Positions 16,503-45,149 of a stretch of DNA of 64,000 bases are shown in pieces. Each line of letters begins with the position of its first letter. The first letter of the stretch is position 1. The stretch is from a virus (lineage: Duplodnaviria > Caudoviricetes), in IMG/VR virus record IMGVR_UViG_3300012347_000469, positions 1 to 64,000 of that record; one strand, given 5' to 3'. The notes under the pieces are model-generated. The model saw only the letters and a list, made by a program, of their open reading frames with translations. It was not told the DNA's origin and ran no database searches. The translations under genes were made by a program, and so were the position numbers.

Positions 16503-16510
16503 TATTTATT
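16503..16510 (-). promoter_or_regulatory. T4-type late promoter AATAAATA
   Basis: Overlaps the stop codon of the giant ORF, 4 nt before the ATG at 16498. Confidence 0.4.
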
Positions 16511-22500: not shown

Positions 22501-25500
22501 CGTTGGCTAATTGACACACTAGTACCGAAAAACTCATTAGGAAATTCTTCATAGCTTAGCAGTTTCTGTACTAGTTTAAATGTAGTACTTGTCGAGGATA
22601 AGTCTTTTCTAAAAATGTAAACCGATCCTTGAGAATTAAAATTGATATCGGCATTAGGACTTGATATTACTAAAGTAGATCCTGCCCAATCGATGTCCAT
22701 CGATAGCCCGAACTGATCTCCACTAGCAATAATTTCGCTAGTACCTGTATCATTTATATCATCTAAAGTAGCAGCAGTAATAGTCTGATGGAGAATATAT
22801 GCGCCAGCTAACGATCGTTGATAAACAAATACCTTTCCTGTAGGCAATCTAGAACTGTCGCCTACAATTGCCCACGGATCTCGCTCTGGTGATTGATTAA
22901 TACTAGCATATACAACTGATGAGTCTGTCGATGGATCGTTATCTGATCTTGGATCATACAATTTTCTATAAGAACTAATACTAGTTAGCGGGTCTTCATA
23001 TCGTACTACATCGTTTGTGTAATAAACTTGATAAGGACTCCATACTCCTTTATAATTTTCAAAATATTGATTATCTGCGTTAGGAGCACTGACTACCAAA
23101 ATACTGCCATCTCGACTCATTGATATAGCATGCCCGAAGTTATCACCTTGCTTTACCATTTCAGAAAATTGTAAAGTATTAGATGTTGAATCTCCTAACA
23201 AACCAGTTGGTAATGTTAACACTTCTTCGTCGTATGCTGTTCTTGATGGTAAGAAACTACCAGAATTTTCAACTAACTCCCACATCTCATCATTAAATGC
23301 AGTGTTTTGCGTTTTAATAATGTCAACAGTGGCAGTCCATAACTTGTTATTGTACCAAACTACTGAACTGGCAGGGAATACAATATCATTAATTACATAT
23401 TCTGTAGAATCAATACTAATATATAATCCTCTATAATTTCGATCTTCAACTATACTCCATTTAGAGTTTTCATATACATATAAGTAAACCCGGCCGGTAC
23501 TGTTTACTGCACCAGTTGCCGAGACCGCCATATAATATTTGCCGTTTGATACAGATATCGAAATACTAGATCCAAAGTATTCATTAGCAAATACCCTAGG
23601 ACTAACAATTACATCTGATACCGTCCATTGATTAGACTGCCATTTATATAAGAATACCGCTCCTTGGTGGGTAGGGCCTGCATATCCAGATAAATCTCCC
23701 TTAACTAATGTCGCTGGTTTCCAGTCTTCGGTATATATGTCAATTGTACTACCATCGCCAATTCGAGTACCTACAGATTCCCAAAGTTGTCCTTTGTATA
23801 ATACAATATCACCAATTGAATATGCAGCCGCTGGATTAAATTCGCCTGCAAAGTTACTCTTAATTCCGCTAGCATTAGGTGCTCCTACTGCTAACCATTT
23901 ATCGTCCGGACTTAATGCAAGCACTGCACCGAAACTAAAATTTAATGCAGTAGCATATCCCGATGCCGGAATTATAATTTGACTAACTGCTAATGTATTA
24001 TTATAGTCCGCTAGCGAAATAACTTGACCCGAACCAGGAATACCGACTAGTGATCTGTTCAAACTAATAGCATGTGCTACCGCAGATCCGACGCGTAAAG
24101 GATTCGTAATTAAATAATTACTAACAGTAGACCCAACAAATTGTGTTTGCTTTTGCAAAACTTGCCATGCGGTTGATGCCGACTCATCTCCATATATATC
24201 ATCGATCCATATTCTAGAATTAGTCTTCAGTAATGTTAAAGATTCACGGTTAACATCTGCAAATGATTTATATCTTGCATTGGTTAGTAAATATAGATTG
24301 TATGAGATTGTGCTAGAATCAAACGGTATCAATAACGAAGTAGATTCAACTACAACTGTGAAAGATGTATCGGTTACTGCAACAATATTAAAAAATCCAG
24401 TTAGCTCGTCGATATCTCGAATACCTATGTAGTCATCAACATTTAATAAATGAGGGCGATTAACTGTTACTGTAACTAAGGTATCGACTTTAACAATACT
24501 CGTAATATATATAGAACTAGTAAAGTTGAATCGTAATACTGACCATGTGTAATTATCAAAAGTAATCCAAAAATGTGTATTTTCCGGAACTGTATTAATA
24601 TCAATTGTTTTTAAATCAGATTTTGTTCGTACTGTGTAATCTATTTGATTAAGTGCTACGTAACCTGCCGATCTAGTAATTCCTGTATACTGACTAGTCG
24701 GATTAACAGCGGTAGTAAAAGGAATCGGTGCATAACTGAACTTACTTTGATCTGTCCTAATATATAAATCAGTGTAGTTACCGGTTGTTGATGATATTAT
24801 AATTGGCTGAGGATTTAATTCAAAATCACCTTTATTAATTTCAAACTCAACATATGAAACTTGATCGGTACCTCCTAGCCTACCGACTTGAAACGCCCAT
24901 TCTTCGTTTAATACAATTCCGGCATCTATATCAGTGTTTGCTTTATCAAATAATTTAACCAATGCATTAGCAGTGCCTTTTTCTCGTATAAATCCTTGGT
25001 ACAGTTTAAATTGGGAAACTTGATCTTCTGCAATTTCTTGTAAATAATCTCTAGTTTGATAACCGATTGCGTGTCTTGCAAGATCTCGTTGACTAGATCC
25101 AATTCCGTCAGCATCTGAATTATAGTAATCACTGAATTGATTAATTTTGTAATCAAAATTAGATAATAGTTGACTTTCGGGTGTTACATCTAATTTGCTC
25201 CACTTAGATTCGTCAAATGTGTCAGTTCCTAATTGGAATTTTAAATTTGTCCAATTATAAGAACGATACGATACTATATCACCTAATTTATAATCAACAA
25301 ACGGAGACCACGGTGTAATATTAACATTGTCGTATATAAATCCTGGACTTGTGTAATCACCATCCCAATCTGTAGTTCTAAATCCTCTTGATTTCAATCT
25401 GTTTTGACGATACCCTGTAGTTTTATCATATATTACATCATTAAATACAGTTCTATCTGAAAAAATAGCAACGTGCTCTTTTAAAACTAAGTACGCTTTG

Positions 25501-28500
25501 AGTAGATATATGCTGTCTGATAAATTAACTGTCTCAACCGTTAATTGTTGGAACTCGCGGGTTACATTAATTGCACTAGGTAATAATACATTTCCGTCAT
25601 TCTTTAAGATTTGATAATCATAGAATCCATCTAAGAAATTTTCCGCCACGCCGACTGAAGTAGTAAACGTAAGTTTGTTTGCTGCCGGGCTTAATGATAG
25701 CAATGCTCCTTGTGCCCAGTTATGGCGAGTCCAAAATAAGAATTCCTTAATACTGGTTACCCAATTTCTAGTTTCTCGCAAAACAGTATCATACTCGTCA
25801 AATACAAAACCTTCAGATTTAAGATATTCCGAATATCCGCATAAAAAATCAACAACATCTTGTATAGATGTAAAAATTGTACCGTATTCAAGTTCTTCAG
25901 CTTTAGATTTATAAAATTGAGTTCTAACAAATACTGTAACTCCCCCAGTAAGAGGTAATGCGGGTATTTTTTTCCATAATGAAGCCTCGAACACTGTGCC
26001 ACTGTTGTGTGACTTAATTGCTCGATAAAAGCTATCGTAGTATTTAATTAGTGTTCCGTTAGAATATGTAACATTAGATTCCCATTCTACATAATTATCA
26101 GATACCCCGCCTACGCTTAGTAATTGACTCTCGACTAGTTGGGGACTATAATATTTAAATACTGGATTGAGATTGTCATACCCATAAATTTTGTATCCTC
26201 TTTCAGCTTTTTCAATTATTACTCCACTATAAGTAACTGTTTGCATAGGAATTCCAACATTGAAAATTATGTTATAATTTTCAATGGGTACAAAAATACT
26301 ACTAGTTTTTGCATTAGGATTTTTACTATCTAAAATGTATTTTTGTTGAGTTTTATCAACAAATCCCGATAATCGTGTAGAAAGATGTACATCAATACCG
26401 TATATCTTTTCAGATATAGTAGTTAGCGGCAAATTCACATACTTACCGTAGTCTGTTATATAATTTATCAATCCTGATGAGACGATTCCGCCAACTTCCG
26501 GTATTACTATATTTTCAAGTTTTAAAAATTGATTAGACTCTACACATACTGTTTGCCCTATCTTATTTAATTTTACTCTATTTTTATCTAAGTTTTCACC
26601 AATAAATTCAAACGGTCTCATTATGCATGATGCAATAATTAAAGAAAACGGCCAGTCGCTGCTACGTTTCCATGCAGTTTCTACCGGAGATCCATCGCCG
26701 AATTTAAAATCGTTGTTTTTATCAACTAGGGGGAGAGTACCAATTAAATTTGAATCTATTGGTGATAATAAATTACCGTCGGCATCTACTGGTAAATGAC
26801 TTAAAATGGTAGGACGCTTGTATCTGTCATGTGTCCCAGCTGTAGGTCCATTTCGAATTATACCGTCGCGAATATCTTCCCATAAAATTAAGTTATTGCT
26901 TGTGTATGGGAATTCTCCGTATTCGCTATCCCACCATGTTGGTTTTTCAGAAAAACCAAGCATTGCCCACGGTGTTAAATGAGGAGTATCAGTATCATAA
27001 AACCAATTGTATAATCCTCTCCACCATCCTGGTAAATTGCCTTCACCTGTTAAATCAGTTAAGTCGCTGTAAGTATAAGTGAACGGGTTGCTCGGAATGA
27101 AGAATTGATTTTCGACAAATTCAGTTCTAGAAAATTGTGCCCATTGTCTAAATTGTTTAGATATAACAGAATCTAATTGTGATTTTGAGTAAACTGCATT
27201 TCCGTACTTGCCGCCAAATATATAATCAATATCATATATTTCTGTGCTATATGTTTTTTTGATATTATTATAAATTCTCTTTTCTAATTCTAAAATAACA
27301 TCATCTCTATAATCGTTATACGCAACAGTAATGCTGCCGTCGTGACCACGAATAACATTAATCGGTTCGATATATGTATTATCTAAAAATTTTTCCGGCA
27401 AGTATCTTTTGTATAGCCCTAACTTAGTAGGAGTCGGAGGCATATAACTAAATGCCGTACTTACATATTCTTTAATAACAACAACATCATTTTCTGATAC
27501 GTCAACTAGTAATTCAACAAATCCAAAATTAGAATTGAAAATATAATCTCGAGATACAACTAATTGTAAGTTATTTAAATAAATGTAAACAGCACGGCGA
27601 CTCGATGTGTCGAGGTCAAATTTATTAGACAACGCAAATACTTTAATTTCTGGGTCTTCTACTACATAAACTTTTGCAGTATGTGCCCCTACTCCTAACA
27701 TATCAGAGTCTGCAAACGGAGTAGTTTGAGTCTTGACTTTGGTCATTTCGACAATAATGTCATCAACAAACTGAACTGGATCATTATCGTACTCAAGGGT
27801 CTCTGCTAGTCGAACAAAGTTATTTTTATAATTTCGATATGCATTATTTGCATACTCTACCGATTTAATTACATTTAATTGTTTGTCACATAATAATTCA
27901 ATTGCAACAGGAGTTATGCTAGAATGCTTAACAAAGCGTTTCGCTAGATGCTGATACCCAGTGATGTCTCTAAGATTACTATTTCCAGGATATATCCCAT
28001 TAAACTCACTAAAAATGTCGACCGCAGTAGATATATGATCTACTGCTTCTCCTAATGTAAATGTGGTAATATCTTGATTTAACGGATTTTTTTCTAAGCC
28101 AATAGGAATTTCATAATAGCCGTACTTGGGCTCTGCATTACAAAATACTTTAATAGATACTACTGTTCCGACAGGTAATAATACATTAAATATAAATTTG
28201 TTATCGACTCGTTCTACAGGTGCAGTGTATTTCTCTCCGTTAACATATATAATTGTTTTATAAATATTGTCTAAAGGAGTAGCTGCCCAATCGATAGCAT
28301 CAATAATTGCAATATTTGACTCAGTAGTAATTGTTACGGTATCGATAATTGGTTGATAAAAGCGTTTGTCGGATTTAATCCAGCAATTTCCGTACTCTCC
28401 AGTTTCTATGGATTCATAATACCCGGCCGAAATAGGTTTTACAATTTGTGTCCTATTTAATTCATATTGAAACGATTCGATATCCCAATCAAAATTAAAT

Positions 28501-30869
28501 GTTATATCACCAATATTGTTAATATTTAAATAACTAATACTAAATCCTAATTCAGTATCAATAATTGAATTTCCAAGTTTATAGCTTAAAATTTTAGAAC
28601 CTGAAAATGTGCTTGCCGGGTATCTCGATACATCACTGTAGCTAACTCCGTCATCGTCGACTACTTCGAATAACGGAGACTGGTTTGCTGACATTTTACG
28701 CTGGCTTAGATGCCATGCATCATTTACAAAATGATACATGCTTCCAATTTGTGTTCCTCTCTTTACTAATACACATTCACCGATATATGATTCAGAATCG
28801 TTAATATGTTTAAGAGTTATTTGTCTTAAGTCAGGACTAACTTTCCATATTGAAGATGTTGGATACATAGCGGTGCTAGCCAACATCAAATTACCTTCGG
28901 GTACTGCATTTGCTAAGTTAAGTACATCACCTTGTGGTATCAACGATATCGTAAATTCTGTCGAATTCGAATTTAAATTATTAACTGATACAATATAATA
29001 AGTTGTATCTAAACTCACATTACCCACCGAAGTACCAGAGAAAGAAATAGCCATTCCTGGTTTAATGTTAGTATTTTTTAAAACTTTTAATTGATTTGTT
29101 ATTCCAGAAGTAGACAAAATCGATAACTTAATCGAAGGGGAATTGCTTAGTGCAGTTAAGGATTGTCCATTAAATCGCACAGTTTCTCCAGTTCGATAAG
29201 AAATATTAATATCCCAATCACCTCTATATGACGATCCAGAGCTATGATTAATAAAATTTACTTCATAAATTTTATTATTAGCAAGCCTGTCAGTATCTGC
29301 AGTTACTAATAGTCTAGCACCATCAAATAAATATTCTCCGTCGACTATGTACCCTTGACTACCTTCGATTGTTGAAAATACATCTGTTGTAAAAGTATCT
29401 ACAAAATCAACTGGAGTTTTTGCAATAGTTCCATGATTAAATAATCGAATATTACTTAAAAATTCAATAATTGGGCGTTTTGCTCTAGCTGCGTCGCTTG
29501 CATCAAAATCTGTACCATTAAATTCATGAGAATATGTTAAGACTGATCGGTGGAACCATCTGTTATATCGACTCCACGGATTTGAATCTTGACTTGTACG
29601 ATTAATTGTTATATAGTCCTTAGAAGACGGATATAATGCTGCATCGTCAAACGGTTCAGCATCAAACCCTCTATTATCAAATAAAATTTCAGGAACATCA
29701 GCGGTAAAATTACTTGGGATTAAATCCTGAAATTTTACTAACTTAATTTTGTCACCAACACCTTCTACTAGCCAGCTATCTCGAGAATAGTTAGACGGTG
29801 TTACTTTTCCCGAAAATGAAACTATCATCCCGTTACTTAACACAACACCATTAGTGCTAGAGTAAGTTTGTTTTCCTAAAATTTCCTGTTCAACATTTAT
29901 AGTTGTGTTGGTTTCAACATTAGCAATGATAAATCTGCCAAACATGTTCGGATCAAGTACACTTTGATAAAACAATACATCAGGTGCATCTAGCGGAACT
30001 GAAAAAGTAATTGTTCCGTTTTCAGTTCCGCTATTTGTAACTCCTGTAGTGTAGTCAAAAATCGACGTTGATGTAGCAGTTTCGACAAAATCCCAGTCAG
30101 CCGACTCGATGCTAATTGAACTACCTTCAGTAAACGATATGTTTGTGTTAGCTTTCCATAACTTACCATCGTATATCGCGTATTGATTTTTTGAATACGA
30201 TAAATTAGGATTGTACAATAAAGATCCAATATCATACGATGTACGTATTACAAATCCGTTGTTAGGTGCATTAACTCGAAAATTATATGTCTGACCCCTG
30301 TAGAGAGTAATTGTTGGATTATTTGTTTTTCCATCTGGGGAGAAAATAAAAGTCGAACCAACACCTAACCCAACCTTATAAGTACTTACTATATTTTGAG
30401 ATTGACCTGTTATGTTAACAACTGGAGGTCCTTCTGGAACCCAAAAATATTCTCGATAGTTAACAAACTTGTCCCAGTCAATCGGAGGTGTCCACGAGTA
30501 ATGATCCTGCTCAGTAATTGAATCGTCTCTATCAATTTTATTTTCAAAAAATTGTAATTGATTTTTAAAATCAATATAATCATAAAAATTTAAAATTTTC
30601 TCGTCTTTTTTGACTACTACAGCAGGCTCTAATTGATATCTACTACGTAATGTCTGGTCGGTATCAAGGTATACATCTGTACTATTAAATGTTTTACCAT
30701 ATCTACGACCAATATATCCTACAGTTTTGTCTAGCTTTCCTGGCTGCACTAATGGATCAAGCACAGCTGCCATAAACTTATTATTTGCTGGAGTTTGAAA
30801 TACTGCAGGTAGTAAGTCTACAGTTCTACGAATTGGTACGCCACTTTGAGTATAAATTTTATCTGTCAT
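16506..30869 (-). CDS. giant baseplate wedge protein (4787 aa), gp7-like by position
   Basis: Uninterrupted 14.4-kb ORF immediately after gp6, as gene 7 follows gene 6 in T4; contains FG-GAP-like blades, CBM5/12-like motifs and GxGY...GxGA beta-repeats. Confidence 0.75.
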   Translation of the reverse strand: MTDKIYTQSGVPIRRTVDLLPAVFQTPANNKFMAAVLDPLVQPGKLDKTVGYIGRRYGKTFNSTDVYLDTDQTLRSRYQLEPAVVVKKDEKILNFYDYIDFKNQLQFFENKIDRDDSITEQDHYSWTPPIDWDKFVNYREYFWVPEGPPVVNITGQSQNIVSTYKVGLGVGSTFIFSPDGKTNNPTITLYRGQTYNFRVNAPNNGFVIRTSYDIGSLLYNPNLSYSKNQYAIYDGKLWKANTNISFTEGSSISIESADWDFVETATSTSIFDYTTGVTNSGTENGTITFSVPLDAPDVLFYQSVLDPNMFGRFIIANVETNTTINVEQEILGKQTYSSTNGVVLSNGMIVSFSGKVTPSNYSRDSWLVEGVGDKIKLVKFQDLIPSNFTADVPEILFDNRGFDAEPFDDAALYPSSKDYITINRTSQDSNPWSRYNRWFHRSVLTYSHEFNGTDFDASDAARAKRPIIEFLSNIRLFNHGTIAKTPVDFVDTFTTDVFSTIEGSQGYIVDGEYLFDGARLLVTADTDRLANNKIYEVNFINHSSGSSYRGDWDINISYRTGETVRFNGQSLTALSNSPSIKLSILSTSGITNQLKVLKNTNIKPGMAISFSGTSVGNVSLDTTYYIVSVNNLNSNSTEFTISLIPQGDVLNLANAVPEGNLMLASTAMYPTSSIWKVSPDLRQITLKHINDSESYIGECVLVKRGTQIGSMYHFVNDAWHLSQRKMSANQSPLFEVVDDDGVSYSDVSRYPASTFSGSKILSYKLGNSIIDTELGFSISYLNINNIGDITFNFDWDIESFQYELNRTQIVKPISAGYYESIETGEYGNCWIKSDKRFYQPIIDTVTITTESNIAIIDAIDWAATPLDNIYKTIIYVNGEKYTAPVERVDNKFIFNVLLPVGTVVSIKVFCNAEPKYGYYEIPIGLEKNPLNQDITTFTLGEAVDHISTAVDIFSEFNGIYPGNSNLRDITGYQHLAKRFVKHSSITPVAIELLCDKQLNVIKSVEYANNAYRNYKNNFVRLAETLEYDNDPVQFVDDIIVEMTKVKTQTTPFADSDMLGVGAHTAKVYVVEDPEIKVFALSNKFDLDTSSRRAVYIYLNNLQLVVSRDYIFNSNFGFVELLVDVSENDVVVIKEYVSTAFSYMPPTPTKLGLYKRYLPEKFLDNTYIEPINVIRGHDGSITVAYNDYRDDVILELEKRIYNNIKKTYSTEIYDIDYIFGGKYGNAVYSKSQLDSVISKQFRQWAQFSRTEFVENQFFIPSNPFTYTYSDLTDLTGEGNLPGWWRGLYNWFYDTDTPHLTPWAMLGFSEKPTWWDSEYGEFPYTSNNLILWEDIRDGIIRNGPTAGTHDRYKRPTILSHLPVDADGNLLSPIDSNLIGTLPLVDKNNDFKFGDGSPVETAWKRSSDWPFSLIIASCIMRPFEFIGENLDKNRVKLNKIGQTVCVESNQFLKLENIVIPEVGGIVSSGLINYITDYGKYVNLPLTTISEKIYGIDVHLSTRLSGFVDKTQQKYILDSKNPNAKTSSIFVPIENYNIIFNVGIPMQTVTYSGVIIEKAERGYKIYGYDNLNPVFKYYSPQLVESQLLSVGGVSDNYVEWESNVTYSNGTLIKYYDSFYRAIKSHNSGTVFEASLWKKIPALPLTGGVTVFVRTQFYKSKAEELEYGTIFTSIQDVVDFLCGYSEYLKSEGFVFDEYDTVLRETRNWVTSIKEFLFWTRHNWAQGALLSLSPAANKLTFTTSVGVAENFLDGFYDYQILKNDGNVLLPSAINVTREFQQLTVETVNLSDSIYLLKAYLVLKEHVAIFSDRTVFNDVIYDKTTGYRQNRLKSRGFRTTDWDGDYTSPGFIYDNVNITPWSPFVDYKLGDIVSYRSYNWTNLKFQLGTDTFDESKWSKLDVTPESQLLSNFDYKINQFSDYYNSDADGIGSSQRDLARHAIGYQTRDYLQEIAEDQVSQFKLYQGFIREKGTANALVKLFDKANTDIDAGIVLNEEWAFQVGRLGGTDQVSYVEFEINKGDFELNPQPIIISSTTGNYTDLYIRTDQSKFSYAPIPFTTAVNPTSQYTGITRSAGYVALNQIDYTVRTKSDLKTIDINTVPENTHFWITFDNYTWSVLRFNFTSSIYITSIVKVDTLVTVTVNRPHLLNVDDYIGIRDIDELTGFFNIVAVTDTSFTVVVESTSLLIPFDSSTISYNLYLLTNARYKSFADVNRESLTLLKTNSRIWIDDIYGDESASTAWQVLQKQTQFVGSTVSNYLITNPLRVGSAVAHAISLNRSLVGIPGSGQVISLADYNNTLAVSQIIIPASGYATALNFSFGAVLALSPDDKWLAVGAPNASGIKSNFAGEFNPAAAYSIGDIVLYKGQLWESVGTRIGDGSTIDIYTEDWKPATLVKGDLSGYAGPTHQGAVFLYKWQSNQWTVSDVIVSPRVFANEYFGSSISISVSNGKYYMAVSATGAVNSTGRVYLYVYENSKWSIVEDRNYRGLYISIDSTEYVINDIVFPASSVVWYNNKLWTATVDIIKTQNTAFNDEMWELVENSGSFLPSRTAYDEEVLTLPTGLLGDSTSNTLQFSEMVKQGDNFGHAISMSRDGSILVVSAPNADNQYFENYKGVWSPYQVYYTNDVVRYEDPLTSISSYRKLYDPRSDNDPSTDSSVVYASINQSPERDPWAIVGDSSRLPTGKVFVYQRSLAGAYILHQTITAATLDDINDTGTSEIIASGDQFGLSMDIDWAGSTLVISSPNADINFNSQGSVYIFRKDLSSTSTTFKLVQKLLSYEEFPNEFFGTSVSISQRSERIVIGAKNVKNASTSIFDAGSITFDKNRTSFYDAIGSAGQVYVYENKDQVYLLAEKLEADLQNFESFGTAIDATNSVIVVGSPDYKLESASENLIAGQSYTITNVGTTDWYSLGVSRNITPTVGTRFTALSAGSGTGTALSTTKIGKVRVFSKDETTNSLQVIAQESKLVNLDLIKNISVYDLETNINLGSLDIVDHYKLNILGVAEQELSFKTVYDPAIYSVGTADHEVDDSQAWFSDNVGKLWWDLSTVKFTYAEQGDIAYRIGQWNSQVTGSSIDIYEWVESIYTPSEWAALSITTEGVSLGISGTPKFVDNSVYSVKPLYNSVSGELSNTLYFYWVKNKTATPEGMPTRRISASQVSNLIASPETSGLPFIALIDTDKFLLWNMRSLLTSDNSAINIEYAESAYKINPVHTEYQLLTEGVADSLPTASLEAKWIDSLVGYDQSGNKVPDTKLSPKQRYGLSFRPRQSMFADRFSVLDAVLENVNVLLQSKPFADTISYSNLGLVDSVPIQELAEYDLVVPQYIDLETVGVVKVKQAVLVANITDGEIESITILEPGAGYRVVPPIIIQGSGIGAKAVATIDSQGKISSVTILSRGRKYLSAVVSVRQFSVLVEQDETIDNYWVIYSWDDRRSIFFKRKIQSFNTPNYWKFVDWYAAGVTPTSRIVTEISSLTEEPSIRPNTGDIIRITEFANGGWALLQKTEFGAGTILQNYNLVARENGTIEIIKSKFSQLSGIGIDTVSTYDGNFYDLQPTAELRNILSAIKEDIFIDDLRVEWNKLFFTSIRYSFVQLPAVDWAFKTSFLNAIHKVGMLDQRLNYKNDNLESYQQYIEEVKPYRTTIREYTSKYDAVEYANNAILDFDNPPAYSTEYGKIVPITAENIISESYPWQSFYQNLGQSVIAITLINAGTGYTSPPSVLIDGSGTGAVAKAYLSNGSVSGIEILSTGAGYTSAPTVRLVGGNGSSTNIATASAVLGNGLVRSLKIGIKFDRISKSGILQTYEQVEEFISPGFTSIFNLKYAPSRDKSKIVVLINSQLILTNEYSITFYKSNIDSFNLLKGKLILAVPPAAGDIITITYDRNDEYLDAANRIQKYYSPLAGMIGKEIPQLMTGVDFGGVQIQGTTFDVTGGWDALPWFTDNWDSVETLSDFYYVADGITPYVELPTAPLAGQLISIYIKRATITTMQNIDNIGTESAPLYVSNPAVYDQRPVRVDGDDYPSGSALIPTFIGDGVTTTVDLIDPATNLLYFAINEGDTLIFRPIDSDGSVIINDPNIIDTRLSGGSLAVMEGAYITATGRTVDEIIVDGDKFINVDNVPATEENVPGQVLDSVSIKLYHTPLQGAAPLQNRLYYSNGVTAVYDIGLVILESTSLLVYVDKNRVTNYQIDYSSNTVIFNEIPSAGSSIELISIGIGGANLLDYREFVSDGTTDFYLTHAKYMQTSSVLVIVNGNEVSSVYYNSSEYSSVQDRTIVQLGYTPEFGATIKIVCVGSAAGTQTTTPTLIRVNNQTIVYDGSTSILELDNFVNLEKSSASSSLIVELNGKQLVGPDTVIQIYTGLNNVVEIGKDPQLQPGTITLNDISLYINNELQPAIIVYTFNSTTKKVTINSDYLSLNDEIKIIISILSDYDVANNSLILSSRLTDTMTAGDVFDIIWFSDYPSFDIVSDQYVGGKVKYKLSKRPVDSNYLWVYNNGIRLSNNKDYDVNISRAELYLNIETSTTDIIKIIEFGNDILVTTSAYEIFKDMLNVYHFKRFVEHNVVLSKDLNYYDQFIEVNDASLLFSPIPSRNIPGVVIINKERIEYLQKTGNRLLQLRRGSLGTSIGEVYTAGMAVTDSSIPETIPYRDQQERYDFVSDGSSLLIGPLEFTPLMSNRTAWHRDTIPANYGACDQLEIFAGGTRLRKDPLDVYSEDLGPLGDLSSKILEAEFSVDGDTPYIRLTTPVAAGTRITMIRRVGKIWYDKAESTASAGVTFHKNNNPIVNFILQKTTDIPE

Positions 30870-30870
30870 A

Positions 30871-33800
30871 TTATCTTGTTGAGTTAACTATATTTTCTAC
30901 CGGAACACGAATTTCAGAAGCAGTTATAGCTGCTACTATTTCAATGTTATCGACTGTTGCCCCGCTAACAAAGAGTTCGTCAGGGTTACTTTGAATTTCA
31001 AATAAGCTGCCAAAAGATTGACTAGCTTGAGTTGGTACAATAACTAAATTACTAATATCAGGAGATACGCTGTTTGTAATGTAAGTTATTAGTTCACCAA
31101 CATAAAATCTATCTCCAAAATCCCAATTTGCAACATCGAAAAAAGAATTAATTGCACTTACAATTCTAACTTTAAGATCGTTATCATTAATTGATTTGGT
31201 AGAATTTTTTACTACTTTAAATTGTGCCTGTAAAGACGGGACTGCTGTTGATCCAAATAATACTTTATAATTTACCGGATAGTAAATAATTTCGTCGCTT
31301 ATTGTTTTAATAAGATTTAATGCTGATCCGTATGTAATTCTTAGACTTTCACTAGACGGAGCAGTCGGCAGTATGTCTACTGCTCCTTTGAGGTAGTTTC
31401 TAAATTCAGTGTCGTATGTTTTTGTTAGTAAGTATACATCGATGATATTACTAACACTAGGATCGATTCGCCTGTCAACATTTGCATTATGTATATACTG
31501 AAATTTTAATCCAGCTCTGCCAACAAATGCAAGATATGTAGGATCATACTCAAATGCCTTTGACAATCCAGCCTGAACAACTTTCATTACTTTATCTTCA
31601 GATTCTGCATAAAAATAAACAAGATCTCCAACTGAATAGTCTGCTGCATTTGTAGTGAGTTGTGTTAATGCGTACTGTATCGTCGAATTATTTAAATTAT
31701 TTATAAATTCAAATTTAATATTACCAGTTGTGTCGTCGATTTTTCTAAAAAATAAAAATTTTAAATCAGTATCTAATCCTACAATTTGTTCAAATGCTTC
31801 GGGATTATCAATGACTCCGTCATCGTCACTGTCAGAAAACGCAATTTTTATCTCGTTTGTACTTTGGTATCCATCTTCATATCTAATAGCATCACTAATT
31901 TCAAATATAAGATCTTGCATTAACGGAGTAATTAGAGAGTTGTCAGTATTGATTCCTAATACTTTTACTTGATCTTTAATAGTTTTACCAGTTCTGCTGT
32001 CGTATGTTTTTTGATTGGCATCAAAATAAAATCTGTTTTGTTTTAAGCTTCCAAACACATAATCTATACTCCGTATGCTAACAGTGTATCGGTCGATATC
32101 GTTAACAAATGAAACTATCCACGATGCATCAGCATTAGTATTAGATATGTCTCCAGCAGATCCATTATTAAAAAATGAGGATAAATTTAAATTAGCAGCA
32201 GTAATAATTTTCCAAGATAACGATACGTAATCGTATCTTAATCCAAAGTTTAACCCTGCTGTAATAATATTAATCATTTGCAATTCTAGTGCATCGGGCA
32301 AACTAGTCAAAAATCTAGGAACAATTCTACTAGCAATTGCACCAGTAGGAACTGCATCATTAAACATAACAGGGCCTAACCCCGTAGATAGTATACCTCG
32401 TCCTGCATTAGTACCGTCGCCTGTAATCTTAACAGCCTTTACCCAAATTTTATCAGTCTGTGTTGAATCTGTTGTATCGATATCTACAATAGACCCTAAT
32501 TTAAATGCTTTTCCAACTGGGGGTATAAATTTAATTAATGCGTTCGATGTAAGATGTTTTAACGTATTGCTAGTATACGCTCCCACTTTTAACAACGTAT
32601 CAAACTTGTCGACAAAATATCCAGTCGACAAGTTTACATCTGAAGTTACTTGTGTCCATGATATATTTAACTCTGAAAATGCGATTTTTTCGTACTTAGT
32701 TAAGTAAAAATTATAAATGTTATCCGCTGATAATGCCGACTCGAGTTGTCGTCTAATGAAATTTGTAATATCTGCTCTATTAGAAAACTTAAAAGCTAAT
32801 TCAATTTCAGAGTCGTTTTTAAAAATGTATCCGTCATCTGAGAATATATTAACGCTACTATACTTACCGCTAGCATCAACAATATCAAAATTCCTTGAAA
32901 TCCCGCTTGATGTTCTATTAATAGACTTCACTTTAAGAATATCTTGGCTACTTGATAACGGTGCTAACTGATAATCTTCCCCTGTTACCATCCTATTTTG
33001 CGTATAATATATAGCCGGTGCTCGATTTCTAATGCTGTCTATGTCTTCAGCTGCGGTAGCATTTGATATTGCAGATTTTAAACTCAAATTAATAGTGAGC
33101 TCGTGAATAACTCCGGATTTATTTTTATAAGGGATGCCGATAGTAATTCCTCGCATTTCAGAAGGAGTTATAACATAACTTTGCCCAACACTAATTCGAT
33201 AATATGCTCTAAATGCACCTTGAGGTAAATTGCCGTATACTCCGTCTGCAAAAACTAAATCTATTTTGTCATCGGCTTTGGTTACAACATTGTATATGTT
33301 TCGAATATTTGAAGCTATACTATTATATGCAATATTATTTCCAGTAATGGCAGAAACTTTTGTCCACTCGTTAGTTTGAGACTTGTTTCCATCTAATGAG
33401 TATAACCATACATCATCATTGTTAATATTTGGCATATTAACTGTTATAACTTCGTTAGTTGAGGGGATTGCAATTTCAAATTCAGTTGCTTCTAAACTAC
33501 CTTGCTTAAGCATTAAGAAGAATCCAGTGTTAGCACTTCCGGTGCCCTGGCCATCTTGTCGATAAACAAATCCCATTTCTCTTCCGGGCAACGGCGACTC
33601 TTCGTGAAAATCTTCATTACTACCAAATGCTGTGCTAACAATTTCGAATGCCATGCGTCGACTAGCGACTGCTTTATTAAAATTAAATAAAGGTACATCG
33701 GCGAATACTGATCTAAATCTATACTGCTCGGCAGGAATGCCGTGGATTGTCTGAGACCCTTGTCCTCTTCCAAATTCTGTATTGTCGCTCATTGTTGAAT

Positions 33801-34281
33801 TTAATACAGTAATAAATTGCTCAAACCAATTTGGATTAGTTGGATCGTTCCAAATTATATTTTGCCCTGATAAATTTTTTCCAGAACTATCTATGATATT
33901 TTCAGTTGTACTTATTGTATCAAATTTTAAAAGACCCTGAGCGGCTGTATTTCTTTTTGCATTATATGAAAGTAGTCTTGATAATCTAAGAACTGATTCC
34001 TTTGTTTCGGCTAATTCTATAAAATTTTCCCTACTAGCTAAATCAATTCGAAATGCAAGACTTTGGCCTAGAAATGCAACAGCATCAATAATAGCCATAT
34101 ATTCCGAGCTTTCGATATAGTCGTTGAAGTCTTCTGGGTAATTTTCTCGAAGATATGTAACTATAACACGACGCAAATTTTCAAAGTCATAGCTTTTGAA
34201 ATCGGCATTTTTAAAAGTCTGGTAAATTCTTTTCCAGTCTTGATTTAATAATAAATTATTTTGTCTACTAGTAGTTGTCAT
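30871..34281 (-). CDS. gp6: baseplate wedge protein gp6 (1136 aa)
   Basis: N-terminus DFKSYDFENLRRVIVTYLRENYPEDFNDYIESSE...ENFIELAETKESVLRLSRLLSYNAKR and AIYYTQNRMVTGEDY are gp6/baseplate-J signatures. Confidence 0.85.
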   Translation of the reverse strand: MTTTSRQNNLLLNQDWKRIYQTFKNADFKSYDFENLRRVIVTYLRENYPEDFNDYIESSEYMAIIDAVAFLGQSLAFRIDLASRENFIELAETKESVLRLSRLLSYNAKRNTAAQGLLKFDTISTTENIIDSSGKNLSGQNIIWNDPTNPNWFEQFITVLNSTMSDNTEFGRGQGSQTIHGIPAEQYRFRSVFADVPLFNFNKAVASRRMAFEIVSTAFGSNEDFHEESPLPGREMGFVYRQDGQGTGSANTGFFLMLKQGSLEATEFEIAIPSTNEVITVNMPNINNDDVWLYSLDGNKSQTNEWTKVSAITGNNIAYNSIASNIRNIYNVVTKADDKIDLVFADGVYGNLPQGAFRAYYRISVGQSYVITPSEMRGITIGIPYKNKSGVIHELTINLSLKSAISNATAAEDIDSIRNRAPAIYYTQNRMVTGEDYQLAPLSSSQDILKVKSINRTSSGISRNFDIVDASGKYSSVNIFSDDGYIFKNDSEIELAFKFSNRADITNFIRRQLESALSADNIYNFYLTKYEKIAFSELNISWTQVTSDVNLSTGYFVDKFDTLLKVGAYTSNTLKHLTSNALIKFIPPVGKAFKLGSIVDIDTTDSTQTDKIWVKAVKITGDGTNAGRGILSTGLGPVMFNDAVPTGAIASRIVPRFLTSLPDALELQMINIITAGLNFGLRYDYVSLSWKIITAANLNLSSFFNNGSAGDISNTNADASWIVSFVNDIDRYTVSIRSIDYVFGSLKQNRFYFDANQKTYDSRTGKTIKDQVKVLGINTDNSLITPLMQDLIFEISDAIRYEDGYQSTNEIKIAFSDSDDDGVIDNPEAFEQIVGLDTDLKFLFFRKIDDTTGNIKFEFINNLNNSTIQYALTQLTTNAADYSVGDLVYFYAESEDKVMKVVQAGLSKAFEYDPTYLAFVGRAGLKFQYIHNANVDRRIDPSVSNIIDVYLLTKTYDTEFRNYLKGAVDILPTAPSSESLRITYGSALNLIKTISDEIIYYPVNYKVLFGSTAVPSLQAQFKVVKNSTKSINDNDLKVRIVSAINSFFDVANWDFGDRFYVGELITYITNSVSPDISNLVIVPTQASQSFGSLFEIQSNPDELFVSGATVDNIEIVAAITASEIRVPVENIVNSTR

Positions 34282-40666: not shown

Positions 40667-41680
40667 ATGAGCAATTTATTTAAAAAAGTAGCAGTAATGA
40701 CCGACATACATTTCGGTCTAAAATCTAATTCAGTAACACACAATCAAGATTGTGAGGATTTTGTAGATTGGTTTATTGCTACTGCTAAGGCTGAAAATTG
40801 CGATACTGGCATTTTTTGTGGAGATTATCAACATAATAGAAATACTATGAATATCTCCACAATGCATTACAGTTTAAGAGCACTAGAAAAATTAGGGAAA
40901 TCATTCGACCAATTTTTCTTTATAACCGGAAATCACGATTTATACTACAAAGATAAACGAGATATACATAGTGCAGCCTTTGGAAAATATATTCCAGGTA
41001 TAACAGTTGTAGATAGCATTATTACCCAAGGCGATGTTACAATAATGCCTTGGTTAGTGGGCGACGAATGGAAAAAAATTCCCAATATCAAAAGTAGATA
41101 TATGTTTGGCCATCTAGAATTGCCGAGCTTTTTCATGAATGCTATGGTACAGATGCCAGATCACGGACAATTACAAAGTACACACTTTCAACATCAAGAA
41201 CATGTGTTTACCGGACATTTTCACAAACGGCAGCATAATCGAAATATTTCCTATATAGGAAATGCATTCCCACATAATTATGCCGATGCTGGCGACGATG
41301 ATCGTGGAATGATGATACTCGAATGGGGTAATTCTCCTGTATACAAAGCATGGCCAAATCAACCACTATATCGGGTGTTTAAGCTTAGTGATTTAATTGA
41401 CAATGCCGATTCGCTATTACGTGAAAAAATGCACTGCAGAGTAACTATTGACTTGCCGATTAGTTTCGAAGAAGCTAATTTTATTAGAGAAACATTTTTA
41501 CCACAATATAATCTGCGAGAATTAATGTTAATTCCGGAAAAAGTTGAAGTAGAATCTTCAGCTACTTCTATCGATGTAACATTTGAATCAGTAGACACTA
41601 TTGTTATGGCGCAACTTGCTGCAATCGAAAGCGAAGCATATGATAACAAATTACTTTTAGAAATTTATAAAGACTTATGA
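40667..41680 (+). CDS. gp47: recombination endonuclease subunit gp47 (Mre11/SbcD-like)
   Basis: Metallophosphoesterase motifs DIHFG, GD, GNHD, GHLE, GHFH. Confidence 0.92.
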   Translation: MSNLFKKVAVMTDIHFGLKSNSVTHNQDCEDFVDWFIATAKAENCDTGIFCGDYQHNRNTMNISTMHYSLRALEKLGKSFDQFFFITGNHDLYYKDKRDIHSAAFGKYIPGITVVDSIITQGDVTIMPWLVGDEWKKIPNIKSRYMFGHLELPSFFMNAMVQMPDHGQLQSTHFQHQEHVFTGHFHKRQHNRNISYIGNAFPHNYADAGDDDRGMMILEWGNSPVYKAWPNQPLYRVFKLSDLIDNADSLLREKMHCRVTIDLPISFEEANFIRETFLPQYNLRELMLIPEKVEVESSATSIDVTFESVDTIVMAQLAAIESEAYDNKLLLEIYKDL

Positions 41681-43449
41681 TCAAAATTCAGAATTTAACT
41701 GTACGCAACTTCATGAGTGTTGGTAATCAAACTCAAGCAATTGATTTTGATAAAGGACATCTTACGTTGGTATTAGGTGAAAACTTAGACCTAGGAGGCG
41801 ACGACAGCGGTGCTCGTAATGGCACTGGTAAGACAACTATTGTTAATGGGTTGAGTTACGCAATTTATGGTAACGCACTCACCTCAATTAAAAAAGATAA
41901 CTTAGTCAACAAAATTAACAATAAAGGAATGTTAGTTACTGTAACATTTAGTGTTGGTGATACAAAATATCACATAGAAAGAGGACGTAAACCAAATGTG
42001 TTAAAATTTACAGTTAATGGTAAAGAACAAACTACCGATGTAGACGAAAGTCAAGGTGACAGTAGAGAGACCCAAAAAGCCATCGAAGATGTGTTTGGGA
42101 TGAGCCACGATATGTTTAAACACTTAGTAGCATTGAATACTTACACCGAACCGTTTCTTTCAATGAAAGTGGCCGATCAGCGAAATATTATTGAGCAATT
42201 ATTAGGTATTACTCAGTTAACTGAAAAAGCAGACGGCCTCAAAGATCAAATTCGACAAAGTAAAGATACAATAACTTCGGAAAATACTAAGATAGAAACT
42301 ATTAAAGCATCTAATGATAGAATTCAGCAAAGTATTCAAAGTTTAGAACGTAAGCAACGGTTATGGCTTGATAATAATAGCAAAAGTATTAACGAATTAC
42401 AGCAAAGTATTTCGGTATTATCCCATGTAGACATCGAAAGTGAGATTGTTAATCAACGAGCACTAGTTGAATGGTCTAAAAATAAAAAAGAACGAGACAG
42501 TATTAATAGTACAATTGCTAAACAAACTGCAACTATTGATAAAGAAGAAAAAACTTTAGAAAAATTTGAAAAAGAATTAATAGCATTGCTAGAACATCGA
42601 TGCCACTCTTGCGGACAAGAGTTACACGACGATAAGCATGAAGGGATGACCGCTTCTAAAAGTAGTCAAATTACAGAAAGTAAAAAGTTAATTCAAGAAT
42701 ATGCCGATGAACTCACAACATTAACTAATAACATTTTGTTGCTAGGCGAAGCATCAGCATGCCCAAATGTATTATATGATAGTTTAGAGGAAGCGTTAAA
42801 TCATAAAAATACAATCGACGGATTATCTAAAGATCTTGCATCAAAACAATCCGAAATAAATCCATATACTGATCAAATCGAAGAACTTAAAAATACCGCA
42901 TTACAAGAAATTGACTGGGCTAACATTAATAAAATTACCAGAATAAAAGATCATCAAGAATTTTTACTTAAATTATTAACAAGCAAAGATAGTTTTATTA
43001 GAAAACGAATCATCGATCAAAACTTAGCTGCGTTGAATCAACGATTAACATATTATCTAGACAAAATTGGGCTTCCGCATATTGTAGAATTTCAAAATGA
43101 CCTATCTGTATCTATTACTCAATTAGGTCAAGACTTAGACTTTGATAATCTAAGTAGAGGAGAAAGAAATAGATTAATCTTATCACTAAGTTGGGCATTT
43201 AGAGATGTATGGGAAAACTTATATCAGCCTATTAATTTGTTGTTTATTGACGAGTTAGTGGACTCCGGAATGGATGCAAGCGGGGTAGAGTCAAGTATAG
43301 GAGTATTAAAAAGAATGGCAAGAGAACGAGATAAAAACATTTTCTTAATTAGTCATCGAGACGATTTAGTAACACGAGTAAATCATGTACTCAAAGTAGT
43401 AAAAGAAGCCGGATTTACATCGTATTCTGCAGACGTGGAGATAGTATGA
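41677..43449 (+). CDS. gp46: recombination ATPase subunit gp46 (Rad50/SbcC-like)
   Basis: Walker A NGTGKTT, coiled coil with zinc hook CHSC, signature LSRGE, Walker B LFIDE, H-loop ISH. Confidence 0.95.
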   Translation: MIKIQNLTVRNFMSVGNQTQAIDFDKGHLTLVLGENLDLGGDDSGARNGTGKTTIVNGLSYAIYGNALTSIKKDNLVNKINNKGMLVTVTFSVGDTKYHIERGRKPNVLKFTVNGKEQTTDVDESQGDSRETQKAIEDVFGMSHDMFKHLVALNTYTEPFLSMKVADQRNIIEQLLGITQLTEKADGLKDQIRQSKDTITSENTKIETIKASNDRIQQSIQSLERKQRLWLDNNSKSINELQQSISVLSHVDIESEIVNQRALVEWSKNKKERDSINSTIAKQTATIDKEEKTLEKFEKELIALLEHRCHSCGQELHDDKHEGMTASKSSQITESKKLIQEYADELTTLTNNILLLGEASACPNVLYDSLEEALNHKNTIDGLSKDLASKQSEINPYTDQIEELKNTALQEIDWANINKITRIKDHQEFLLKLLTSKDSFIRKRIIDQNLAALNQRLTYYLDKIGLPHIVEFQNDLSVSITQLGQDLDFDNLSRGERNRLILSLSWAFRDVWENLYQPINLLFIDELVDSGMDASGVESSIGVLKRMARERDKNIFLISHRDDLVTRVNHVLKVVKEAGFTSYSADVEIV

Positions 43450-43704: not shown

Positions 43705-43732
43705 AACCCGAATTATTAGTTCGGGTTTATTT
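43705..43732 (+). terminator. probable intrinsic terminator after the gp47-gp46 operon
   Basis: aacccgaa (43705-43712) / ttcgggtt (43720-43727), followed by TATTT. Confidence 0.55.
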
Positions 43733-43816: not shown

Positions 43817-43845
43817 TTGACAAACATATGACTTGGATTTATAAT
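43817..43845 (+). promoter_or_regulatory. perfect sigma70 consensus straddling the GIY-YIG start codon
   Basis: TTGACA (43817-43822), 17 bp, TATAAT (43840-43845); the ATG at 43828 lies in the spacer. Confidence 0.4.
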
Positions 43846-44289
43846 AATAATATAGTAGATGTTCCCCCTGATGATGCAATCGGGTTTGTTTATATCATAA
43901 CAAATTTAACAAATGATCGAAAGTATATAGGGAAAAAACTATTAACGTTTGCTAAGACTACTTATAAAACAGTTAAACTTAAAAACGGTAATAAGAAAAA
44001 AAAGAAAATTAGATCTAGAATTGATTCAGACTGGCAAGAGTATTATGGTTCTAGTATAGAATTATCAAAAGATATCGAACTATTAGGCAAAGAAAATTTT
44101 AGTAGAGAAATTTTATACTATTGTAAAACAAAGTCAGAATGTTCATATATTGAGGCTAGGGAACAGTTTACAAGAAAAGTGCTTGAAAGTAATGATTATT
44201 ACAATGGTCATATACAATTAAGATGTCATAAATCGCATATTTTAGGAAAGATAAATTTAGTTGCTGCCACAATTGCAGTAGGTGAGTAA
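43828..44289 (+). CDS. stand-alone GIY-YIG endonuclease (endonuclease II/Seg-like)
   Basis: GFVYIITNLTNDRKYIGKK...YYGSS...FSREIL...IEAREQ...YYN; nuclease domain only, with no long DNA-binding tail. Confidence 0.85.
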   Translation: MTWIYNNNIVDVPPDDAIGFVYIITNLTNDRKYIGKKLLTFAKTTYKTVKLKNGNKKKKKIRSRIDSDWQEYYGSSIELSKDIELLGKENFSREILYYCKTKSECSYIEAREQFTRKVLESNDYYNGHIQLRCHKSHILGKINLVAATIAVGE

Positions 44290-44297
44290 TATGCGTA

Positions 44298-44305
44298 TAT
44301 AAATA
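44298..44305 (+). promoter_or_regulatory. T4 late promoter TATAAATA
   Basis: Exact T4 consensus in the intergenic gap, followed by an AGGAG RBS and the ATG at 44327. Confidence 0.65.
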
Positions 44306-44326
44306 CTTCACATTAGGAGTTTTAGT

Positions 44327-44506
44327 ATGCGAGGATATTATAAAGAATATGCTTATACTCGAATGCCAAACGGTAAGTATAGGGGATATTTTTTAAAAGA
44401 TGTTCCGACATCTTACTTACAGTGGGCTGCAGCAACGTGGTCAGATCGAGCAACAGCAACAATGTTCCGAATTGAACTTACTCGAAGAGAGAGTTGTACA
44501 GCATAA
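44327..44506 (+). CDS. 59-aa protein, DUF3820-like (missed by the ORF track)
   Basis: Hand translation MRGYYKEYAYTRMPNGKYRGYFLKDVPTSYLQWAAATWSDRATATMFRIELTRRESCTA; the MPxGKY(R/K)G..L.DVP..YL.W motif; AGGAG RBS at 44315. Confidence 0.7.
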   Translation: MRGYYKEYAYTRMPNGKYRGYFLKDVPTSYLQWAAATWSDRATATMFRIELTRRESCTA

Positions 44507-44559
44507 AATTAGGCATTATAGGCAAATTAAAATAAAGTAACACAGTAACAAACAATATA

Positions 44560-44975
44560 GCGGTAACAAGCATGCGTCAGCAAATATCCGACGCCTAAGA
44601 CAACTGGACCTTTGGGTCGCAGGGACAGAAAATTCTCCAGCCGCCAGGAGTACTCAGCAACTATCCTTAACAGGACGATGATTGGACATGCCTTCCCATA
44701 CAACCAATTTTGCTGTTTAAATAGAATTAAAAAGGCCAAAGAGGGTTTGTAACCCACGGCTATGTATATGACAACGTATGTACATAGACCCGCCGTTGTA
44801 TTAAGACGGATTGAGCAGGTACCGGACAACCGCCTGCGCTAGTAGAAATACTTGTAGATCTAACGTTAGTGTGATAGAAAGCAACTCAGATGAGAATGCG
44901 TTTATTTTACTTAGCCCGCCAGGGCTAAGTGTGACTATGCAATCTAGATGAGTGTAAGACACTGCTTCGCAGCTA
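44560..44975 (+). ncRNA. candidate large structured non-coding RNA, family unassigned
   Basis: No credible ORF; ~45% GC over 44581-44940 by hand count against AT-rich flanks; at least ten hairpins. Strand and ends are inferred. Confidence 0.6.
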
Positions 44976-45122
44976 AAACAACAACTAAAAAAATTACTTA
45001 AAGAAAAAAGCTGCTTCAAGCAAAGCGCAGAAGCAGTTGAGCTTTAGCTCAACAACAAACTACAAAACAAAATCTAAAAAAATAATATATTATATAAAGT
45101 TGATTATGTCTTAAAGCAATAA

Positions 45123-45149
45123 CATAAATAAGTAAAACGTTTTACTTAT
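45123..45149 (+). promoter_or_regulatory. late promoter CATAAATA overlapping a 22-bp perfect palindrome
   Basis: CATAAATA at 45123-45130; ATAAGTAAAACGTTTTACTTAT at 45128-45149; ATG at 45161. Confidence 0.55.

Follow-up and report, generated by a model that had tools for sequence, protein, structure and literature searches.

The Polynucleobacter-1 RNA motif was described in 2010 as a conserved structure of 141 nucleotides (nt), known from 16 examples in fresh water, estuaries, and one Polynucleobacter genome, all 16 of which lay downstream of a single gene family (GOS11034, PSSM2_218-like) (Weinberg et al. 2010, PMC2864571). That study, in which the motif was "not detected in any sequenced purified phage," listed it as a possible cis-regulator and gave it no function (PMC2864571). 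Here we describe a conserved structured non-coding element at positions 44560 to 45052 (+ strand) of a 64,000-nt stretch of viral DNA, which we conclude is the full-length form of the Polynucleobacter-1 phage RNA. The stretch, referred to below as the window, comprises positions 1 to 64,000 of IMG/VR virus record IMGVR_UViG_3300012347_000469, an 83-kb record with a completeness estimate of 24%, and belongs to a T4-like jumbo phage.

The element shares with the published motif its 5′ 150 nt and its freshwater origin, and it may share the kind of gene location. In contrast to the published 141-nt motif, the motif is here the 5′ third of an RNA of ∼390 nt plus a tail, is carried by phages, and exists in hundreds of copies; the longer RNA also has four knot-forming pairings, a sister class with another 5′ domain, and a pair of identical short words, R1 and R2. 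Several features are absent from both Rfam and the defining paper: the 3′ core, the tail and the knots, the existence of sister and divergent classes, the identity of the neighboring gene as a GIY-YIG nuclease gene, the carriage by phages, and the rule that the twin words agree.

Direct repeats with a role in priming are known from other systems. In ColE1 RNA II, an upstream stretch of the RNA anneals to the template DNA further downstream, and this pairing depends on a direct repeat; identical direct repeats serve primer or strand transfer as DR1/DR2 of hepadnaviruses, as the R repeats of retroviruses, and as the template boundaries of telomerase and DRT2. In phage T4, the transcripts of the origins oriF and oriG form persistent R-loops over an A+T-rich unwinding element, and these origins need only a middle promoter and the unwinding element, with no folded RNA and no specific sequence (PMC3016281). 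An any-sequence-but-same signature such as that of R1 and R2 is otherwise seen where a nucleic acid strand transfers between two sites. The orphan motif of 2010 forms the head of a phage RNA that ranks among the more intricate ones described, and the complete element offers two handles on its function, namely, a near-obligate place behind a GIY-YIG nuclease that consists of the catalytic domain only, and twin words that are free in sequence but always the same. It could reveal how uncultured phages start replication or aim a nuclease.

Full-length form and relatives of the Polynucleobacter-1 RNA

A cmscan search placed RF01718, the Rfam family of Polynucleobacter-1, over the 5′ 150 nt of the element (98 bits against a gathering score of 37; expectation value E, 1e-21), and the match spanned the whole model (positions 1 to 141 of 141). 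Helices 1 to 6 of this domain are 90 to 100% paired, with changes on both sides in 21 of their 26 pairs. By score and by helices, the element is a member of RF01718. The gene upstream is conserved as well, and its relatives are found in Prochlorococcus and Synechococcus T4-like phages; in the window, an open reading frame (ORF) of 59 amino acids (aa) intervenes.

Between 44300 and 45250, nothing credible besides RF01718 was returned by Rfam at E values up to 10. GOLLD, ROOL, OLE, raiA, and other large Rfam RNAs gave no gathering-score match in the window and none at E ≤ 10 in 44300 to 45250, and group I and group II introns, RNase P RNA, transfer-messenger RNA (tmRNA), and the known small ribozymes gave no Rfam match. 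Across 18 related loci, RF01718 was the only family detected, always over the 5′ part, and the sister class gave none. The original prediction for this region, which was made from the sequence of the window, had proposed an orphan RNA, possibly of an unclassified family, on the scale of GOLLD and ROOL. The orphan status did not survive the Rfam search that the prediction itself had proposed, which found RF01718 and left GOLLD, ROOL, RNase P, tmRNA, and group I/II introns unmatched. A strong Rfam match was expected to remove the novelty, and it does so for the catalogued third but not for the rest of the element. The anticipated large, highly structured, functional-looking + strand RNA is present, but it is smaller than GOLLD and ROOL and matches neither in sequence or structure; it resembles them in being phage-borne, large, and ornate, and we draw no likeness regarding multimers.

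Conservation continues for ∼250 nt past RF01718 in more than 100 viral contigs, and no Rfam family covers that part. Three pattern scans of IMG/VR yielded 236 loci. An nhmmer profile built from 44565 to 44955 of the window and five relatives matched 187 of the 236, more than 100 of them over the whole ∼390 nt (E, 1e-30 to 1e-117). In all, the element measures ∼400 to 490 nt, made up of a core of ∼390 nt and a hairpin tail of ∼100 nt. Its carriers are hundreds of uncultured freshwater T4-like and jumbo phages, and their likeness is to Kyanoviridae and to jumbo phages of freshwater Pseudomonadota. When 185,579 species genomes were scanned, the 8 matches all fell in metagenome bins; the element is therefore phage-borne and not cellular. 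A blastn search with the gap that holds the element gave zero matches in 50,697 cultured phage records; nhmmer found nothing in PA5oct, Melnitz, or S-RIM14, and a covariance model of the 3′ core, run against the whole records of these three phages, reached a best E value of 0.3. At the equal map position (after gp55-gp47-gp46 and before the baseplate hub gene), the cultured jumbo phages PA5oct (L249 3668-5180), Atu_ph07 (L254 7777-8883), and Escherichia coli phage EJP2 (L255 8651-9810) have gaps of 1.1 to 1.5 kb with tiny ORFs only, which show no sequence or model similarity to the RNA.

In the window, the gap extends over 654 nt (44507 to 45160), from the 59-aa ORF that ends at 44506 to a 1047-aa ORF that starts at 45161. 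The guanine-plus-cytosine (GC) content of 44581 to 44940 is 0.45, in agreement with the hand count of the original prediction (∼45%), against 0.36 for the window and 0.31 to 0.38 for the flanking genes. The region had also been said to contain no credible ORF, and this holds: a minus-strand ORF of 100 aa is present at 44527 to 44829 and is not conserved, and among the relatives no ORF is kept on either strand (median longest open stretch: + strand, 52 aa; − strand, 64 aa). ARAGORN found no transfer RNA (tRNA) or tmRNA gene across the whole window.

The 3′ core also occurs without the Polynucleobacter-1 domain. In 39 loci only this part is shared (S1/S2, PK-b, R1, H3, R2, and T2/T3; Table 1), and the 5′ domain, of ∼230 nt, is unrelated and has no Rfam match. 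For this sister class (L067, L125, L043, L031, and ∼35 more loci), which keeps the same core and tail, 21 of 30 loci have the same nuclease gene in front of the RNA. With 148 positions, a covariance model for the 3′ core recovered 98 of the 98 class A and class B loci searched, at 69 to 148 bits, and scored 34 to 78 bits in a set of divergent classes (L279/L311, L313/L316, L317/L285, L286, L331, and L332). In L332, the RNA is on the strand opposite the nuclease gene.

A multiply knotted fold

The structure was read from RNAalifold and a column-pair scan of a plain MAFFT alignment of 80 sequences less than 90% identical (alignment A1). Over 55 pairs in 12 helices, 95.7% of the cells were paired, compared with 77.8% in shuffles, and 781 cells were changed on both sides, compared with 212. 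The covariation score was 0.541 against 0.202 in shuffles, none of 500 shuffles being as high, and it fell to 0.05 to 0.09 in a control in which the 3′ partners were slid by 1 to 3 columns. A model-fitted core alignment of 98 sequences from both classes was 93.4% paired (79.3% in shuffles). The z scores of the single-sequence fold were modest (−2.5 on the + strand and −1.4 on the − strand); the comparative evidence carries the case for an RNA. G·U pairs are invariant or dominant at columns 146-176 (80 of 80 sequences), 148-174 (56), and 357-379 (58), which identifies the + strand as the RNA strand. The search for relatives and covariation proposed at the outset produced more than 100 full-length relatives and strong covariation over shuffles.

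We conclude that the fold is multiply knotted, through PK-0, PK-a, the crossing of S1 with S2, and the crossing of S1 with PK-b. The two sides of PK-0, leader and P3 loop, change together in 14 of 14 sequences inspected, and changes on both sides occur in all 10 pairs of H2 and all 6 pairs of PK-a. In H3, four pairs change on both sides and U·G pairs occur. The tail hairpins T1, T2, and T3 recur in nearly all relatives, T2 and T3 in both classes.

Most of the stems that the original prediction had listed are kept in the family by compensatory changes. These are gcgtc/gacgc, ctggacc..ggtc(g)cag, ctcc/ggag, gggtt/aaccc, the junction cagcaa/ttgctg with its inner tcct/agga and attgg/ccaat, the long stem at 44758 to 44790, gcagg/cctgc, and the 9-bp hairpin at 44909 to 44930. 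The hairpin agta-GAAA-tact exists but is an optional insert in the family. No family support was obtained for four others: ccgt/acgg and cgg-acaa-ccg, where ACAAC pairs instead with GUUGU at 44795 to 44799; the palindrome ctaacgttag, a segment that pairs with the loop of the long stem; and agtgt/acact, which is found in the window and one close relative only.

Table 1. Features of the element, followed by the two ORFs upstream of it, in window coordinates
Feature	Position	Strand	Evidence or remark
Whole non-coding element: core 44560-44953 plus hairpin tail	44560..45052	+	nhmmer, alignments, downstream flanks
Leader GCGG; pairs with P3 loop CCGC 44641-44644 (PK-0)	44560..44563	+	Upstream of Rfam model start
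RF01718 domain: P1 44574-78/44590-94, P2 44604-10/44615-22, P3 44635-38/44647-50	44569..44718	+	Covariance model score, pair counts
RF01718 junction 44655-60/44710-15, inner helices 44665-66/44673-74 and 44680-85/44704-09		+	Pair counts
Linker AAGGCCAAAGAG (conserved) and variable hairpin H1 44743-47/44751-55	44732..44755	+	Alignments
Hairpin H2 44760-70/44777-87; loop 44773-44777 pairs with 44863-44867 (PK-a)	44760..44787	+	
Knotted core: S1 44795-99/44826-30, S2 44815-19/44833-37, PK-b 44809-12/44857-60	44790..44868	+	Common to sister class
Optional GAAA hairpin	44841-52	+	Inside knotted core
Repeat R1: ctc, word AGATGAG (44888-44894), a	44885..44895	+	
Hairpin H3, 44909-17/44922-30, between the two words	44909..44930	+	97.4% paired
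Repeat R2: tct, word AGATGAG (44946-44952), t	44943..44953	+	
Hairpin T1, ctgc-ttc-gcag	44962..44972	+	GCTTCGC motif 10-25 nt after R2 in most relatives
A-rich spacer, 34 nt, 15% GC, between T1 and T2	44975..45008	+	
Hairpin T2 45011-17/45030-36, loop of conserved GAGCGnnAGCGAA type; hairpin T3 45037-42/45047-52	45011..45052	+	
SegE-like GIY-YIG nuclease, 153 aa, catalytic domain only	43828..44289	+	Pfam PF19835, E 8e-33
59-aa ORF between nuclease gene and RNA, in this window only	44327..44506	+	Own TATAAATA at 44298

Twin words and how they may be read

Across the family, R1 and R2 lie 47 to 79 nt apart, with H3 between them. Their 7-mers were identical in 98 of 98 aligned elements, in 50 of 50 loci that had been fetched by patterns in the 5′ domain (a selection unable to bias the result), and in 119 of 120 distinct elements from all unbiased loci, with 12 word variants. 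At the variable positions, the mutual information between R1 and R2 equals the full entropy; no other alignment column covaries with the words. On a tree built without the word columns, the word changes at least 36 times. The divergent classes have wholly different words (AGUCAAG, GGUCAAGU, GUGUCAAG, AGGAUAAU, and AGCUGA), each mirrored. In 94 of 119 elements, the word is followed by G at R1 and by A at R2, and a single element has the opposite arrangement; in four divergent classes the R1 = G/R2 = A arrangement stands beside or inside the word. Neither a third copy of the word nor its reverse complement had a consistent site within the loci, and complementary sites were not enriched in the loci or in the window. 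The original prediction had remarked on GATGA occurring three times. Two of these occurrences, in (ctc/tct)agatgag, form the pair that is identical family-wide, but the third, at 44677, belongs to the Rfam domain and does not follow their changes.

Base pairing can explain words that drift freely yet stay strictly identical, which a ribozyme core, a protein-binding motif, stop codons, or promoter boxes cannot; the words therefore suggest a signal read through base pairing. A match of the two words to UGUUUA at 44714 to 44719 was considered and rejected as rich in G·U and non-covarying. Stop codons, −10 boxes, CsrA sites, k-turn boxes, and a hammerhead core were also considered as readings, and every one of them is contradicted by some variants.

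Because the RNA holds no covarying complement and the loci no consistent reverse-complement copy, the simplest partner of the words is the DNA strand from which the element is transcribed or a strand copied from the RNA. Taken as a whole, a full-length Polynucleobacter-1 RNA whose words are read by pairing to its own template strand is the best explanation we can offer, and we give it a probability only a little short of even. The reading step taken separately, in which the words undergo Watson-Crick pairing to a single complementary strand, most simply their own template DNA, in an R-loop or a primer transfer, is possible and is proposed tentatively. The one-sided G/A beside the word fits pairing of the R1 RNA with the complement of R2 through a G·T wobble. 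Under this proposal, the folded RNA would anchor the R1 segment on the template strand at R2, ∼55 nt downstream, and the pairing would stabilize an R-loop or hand over a primer next to the A-rich stretch, a candidate unwinding element; the adjacent nuclease and gp46/gp47 may then act on the resulting structure. As with T4 oriF/oriG and ColE1, the RNA could remain hybridized to the DNA strand that encodes it and serve as a primer for DNA synthesis, and a 34-nt A-rich stretch follows R2. In contrast to the T4 origins, no MotA-type promoter was found. With DR1/DR2, the retroviral R repeats, telomerase, and DRT2, the common trait is a pair of repeats whose only requirement is mutual identity, since the copied strand anneals at the other repeat; those systems use a reverse transcriptase, whereas none is encoded near the element, and the comparison is one of analogy only.

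Several observations weigh against template pairing of this kind. No intermediate with non-identical words was seen, whereas the ordinary helices of the RNA show 5 to 15% wobble or mismatch, so the words may be under a tighter constraint than pairing alone. Any partner with U or T would also be compatible with the G/A asymmetry. Since the R-loop origins of T4 need neither a folded RNA nor a specific sequence, the ornate fold is left unexplained. The cumulative GC-skew minimum coincides with a divergent switch at ∼39.7 kb, 5 kb upstream, and not with the RNA, and no conserved promoter was found before the nuclease gene in the relatives. Finally, ∼500 cultured phage records (from cyanophages, the Methylophilales phage Melnitz, and Erwinia and Stenotrophomonas phages) encode more distant nuclease homologues, and in the two of these that were inspected, Melnitz and S-RIM14, the RNA was not found after the homologue; as such relatives in Melnitz and the cyanophages lack the RNA, the element is not a universal T4-like origin.

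The main rival, which we judge unlikely, holds that the RNA is a partner of the GIY-YIG nuclease and acts as its scaffold, guide, targeting device, or inhibitor, by analogy with the IscB and TnpB RNAs or with RNA antitoxins. A same-strand ORF of ∼143 aa that clusters with the nuclease ORF of the window precedes the RNA in 66 to 69 of the ∼72 loci that include upstream DNA, and the RNA starts at its stop codon; the sister class, with its different 5′ domain, stands behind the same gene. A search with the protein only found at least 592 viral contigs that encode relatives of the nuclease; among the best 80, 64 have the RNA core downstream on the same strand, and the other 16 are not assessable, 5 having no downstream DNA and 11 having an ORF of ∼380 aa inserted immediately behind the nuclease gene, so that anything beyond it would lie outside the flank that was retrieved. 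Moreover, the enzyme keeps its GIY..YIG, Arg, Glu, and Asn positions and has no DNA-binding domain or extension. The pairing of gene and RNA is nevertheless imperfect: the homologues of cultured phages go without the RNA, in Melnitz and S-RIM14 by inspection and more widely by the empty blastn search; ORFs can sit between gene and RNA, as in the window; and a few RNAs have no nuclease gene upstream. The most variable word position is also the RNA column least correlated with the nuclease protein sequence. Like the HEARO/IscB-IsrB and TnpB omega RNAs, this is a large pseudoknotted RNA adjoining a compact nuclease gene, but the nuclease is of the GIY-YIG and not the HNH/RuvC type and its family is widespread without the RNA, transposon ends are absent, and no terminal guide matches flanking DNA, the variable words being internal and duplicated. 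Nor does the locus have the layout of a type III toxin-antitoxin system (ToxIN-like), as the RNA is downstream of the gene, contains only two short words, and accompanies an enzyme of the GIY-YIG DNA-nuclease type.

A free-standing, trans-acting RNA would instead use its two words to bind two copies of a separate partner, such as an RNA of phage or host or a dimeric protein; it might, for example, be a decoy or regulator in host takeover. In favor of this reading, the RNA is folded and stable, RNA libraries cover it comparatively well, two identical single-stranded sites suit a bivalent partner, and tRNA genes occupy the same genome position in cyanophage relatives. We nonetheless hold this to be distinctly improbable, because a separate partner would have had to change in step at each of the at least 36 word changes and at each full replacement in the divergent classes, because complementary sites are not enriched in the loci or the window, and because a protein motif would not drift so freely.

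Template pairing and a partnership with the nuclease can be combined in a self-addressed device, which we regard as a long shot. In this version, the RNA would pair through R1 with the DNA of R2 in the very locus that encodes it, forming a sequence-programmed R-loop; the GIY-YIG enzyme would nick it, and the gp46/gp47 recombination nuclease would make the break a start point for recombination-dependent replication or homing. If true, the GIY-YIG nuclease would be RNA-addressed, and the phage origin would be of a new kind. An even stranger option is that the two words undergo parallel-stranded homo-pairing inside the RNA.

It is very unlikely that the RNA is a self-processing ribozyme that cuts or joins at the two words and so releases or circularizes the ∼55-nt H3 piece. 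Ribozymes typically have pseudoknots, of which there are four here, and many nucleotides that are unpaired but invariant, and identical sites flanking a unit recall tandem self-cleaving motifs, but no Rfam ribozyme matched at E values up to 10, and no internal guide covaries with the words. Least probable of all is a DNA element, either a replication origin whose direct repeats bind protein or a pair of recombination sites with matching crossover cores, for although direct repeats that must be identical but are free in sequence are typical of recombination core sites and the locus sits at the boundary of the gp46 and baseplate modules, G·U pairs are kept on one strand only, long-range pseudoknots covary, a spacing of 47 to 79 bp is too short for synapsis, no recombinase lies nearby, no inverted arms flank the words, and the region occurs in RNA libraries.

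Expression and genomic setting

The stretch is represented in DNA runs from 12 studies of fresh water, ponds, and wastewater. Metatranscriptomes had been proposed as a way to map the ends of the RNA. Three such runs from two studies have contigs that cover the RNA region (44444 to 44872, 44371 to 44732, and 44540 to 44805), and the last of these reaches a depth of 20 to 27, with nothing on 2 kb of flanks. These data are assembled contigs, from which exact ends and strand are not readable. The RNA-library contigs leave 44873 to 44953, from R1 to R2, uncovered, a hole that proves nothing about the 3′ end. In RNA run X17, the contig that begins at 44540 is preceded by 14 letters equal to the reverse complement of 44873 to 44886, just before R1. 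This loose end is probably a library chimera, or it may hint at RNA ends at 44540 and ∼44887.

Cotranscription from a late promoter at 44298 had been proposed in the original prediction. One metatranscriptome contig bridges the 59-aa ORF and the RNA, which fits read-through from TATAAATA, but both this promoter and the 59-aa ORF are peculiar to the window. Most relatives have the RNA at the nuclease stop codon, without a conserved promoter of its own, and in most the RNA faces convergent genes. The 59-aa ORF matches Pfam QSregVF_b (E, 1.5e-7) and, below the cutoff, the C-terminal end of NCBIfam models of DNA polymerase III epsilon. A perfect sigma-70 consensus (TTGACA, 17 nt, TATAAT; 12/12) at 43817 to 43845 on the + strand overlaps the start codon of the GIY-YIG gene (43828); its transcript would begin inside the ORF, and it is not conserved in the relatives. 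A terminator-like hairpin lies at 43705 to 43727. In cyanophage S-RIM14 (L240 3612-3684), the nuclease homologue is annotated "NAD synthetase" and lies downstream of nrd genes, followed by a tRNA-Arg gene in place of the RNA.

Further upstream in the window, the gp55-like gene, gp47 (40667 to 41680), and gp46 (41677 to 43449) have their nearest relatives in PA5oct, Atu_ph07, and Rak2-like phages, at ∼48% amino acid identity. The structural region includes a single ORF of 4787 aa on the − strand (16506 to 30869), followed by an ORF of 1136 aa (30871 to 34281). The same phage carries a second orphan metagenome motif, the Rfam freshwater-2 RNA RF02980, at 59601 to 59671 on the + strand (55.5 bits against a cutoff of 49.9), and this match ends where the ORF at 59669 to 60061 begins.
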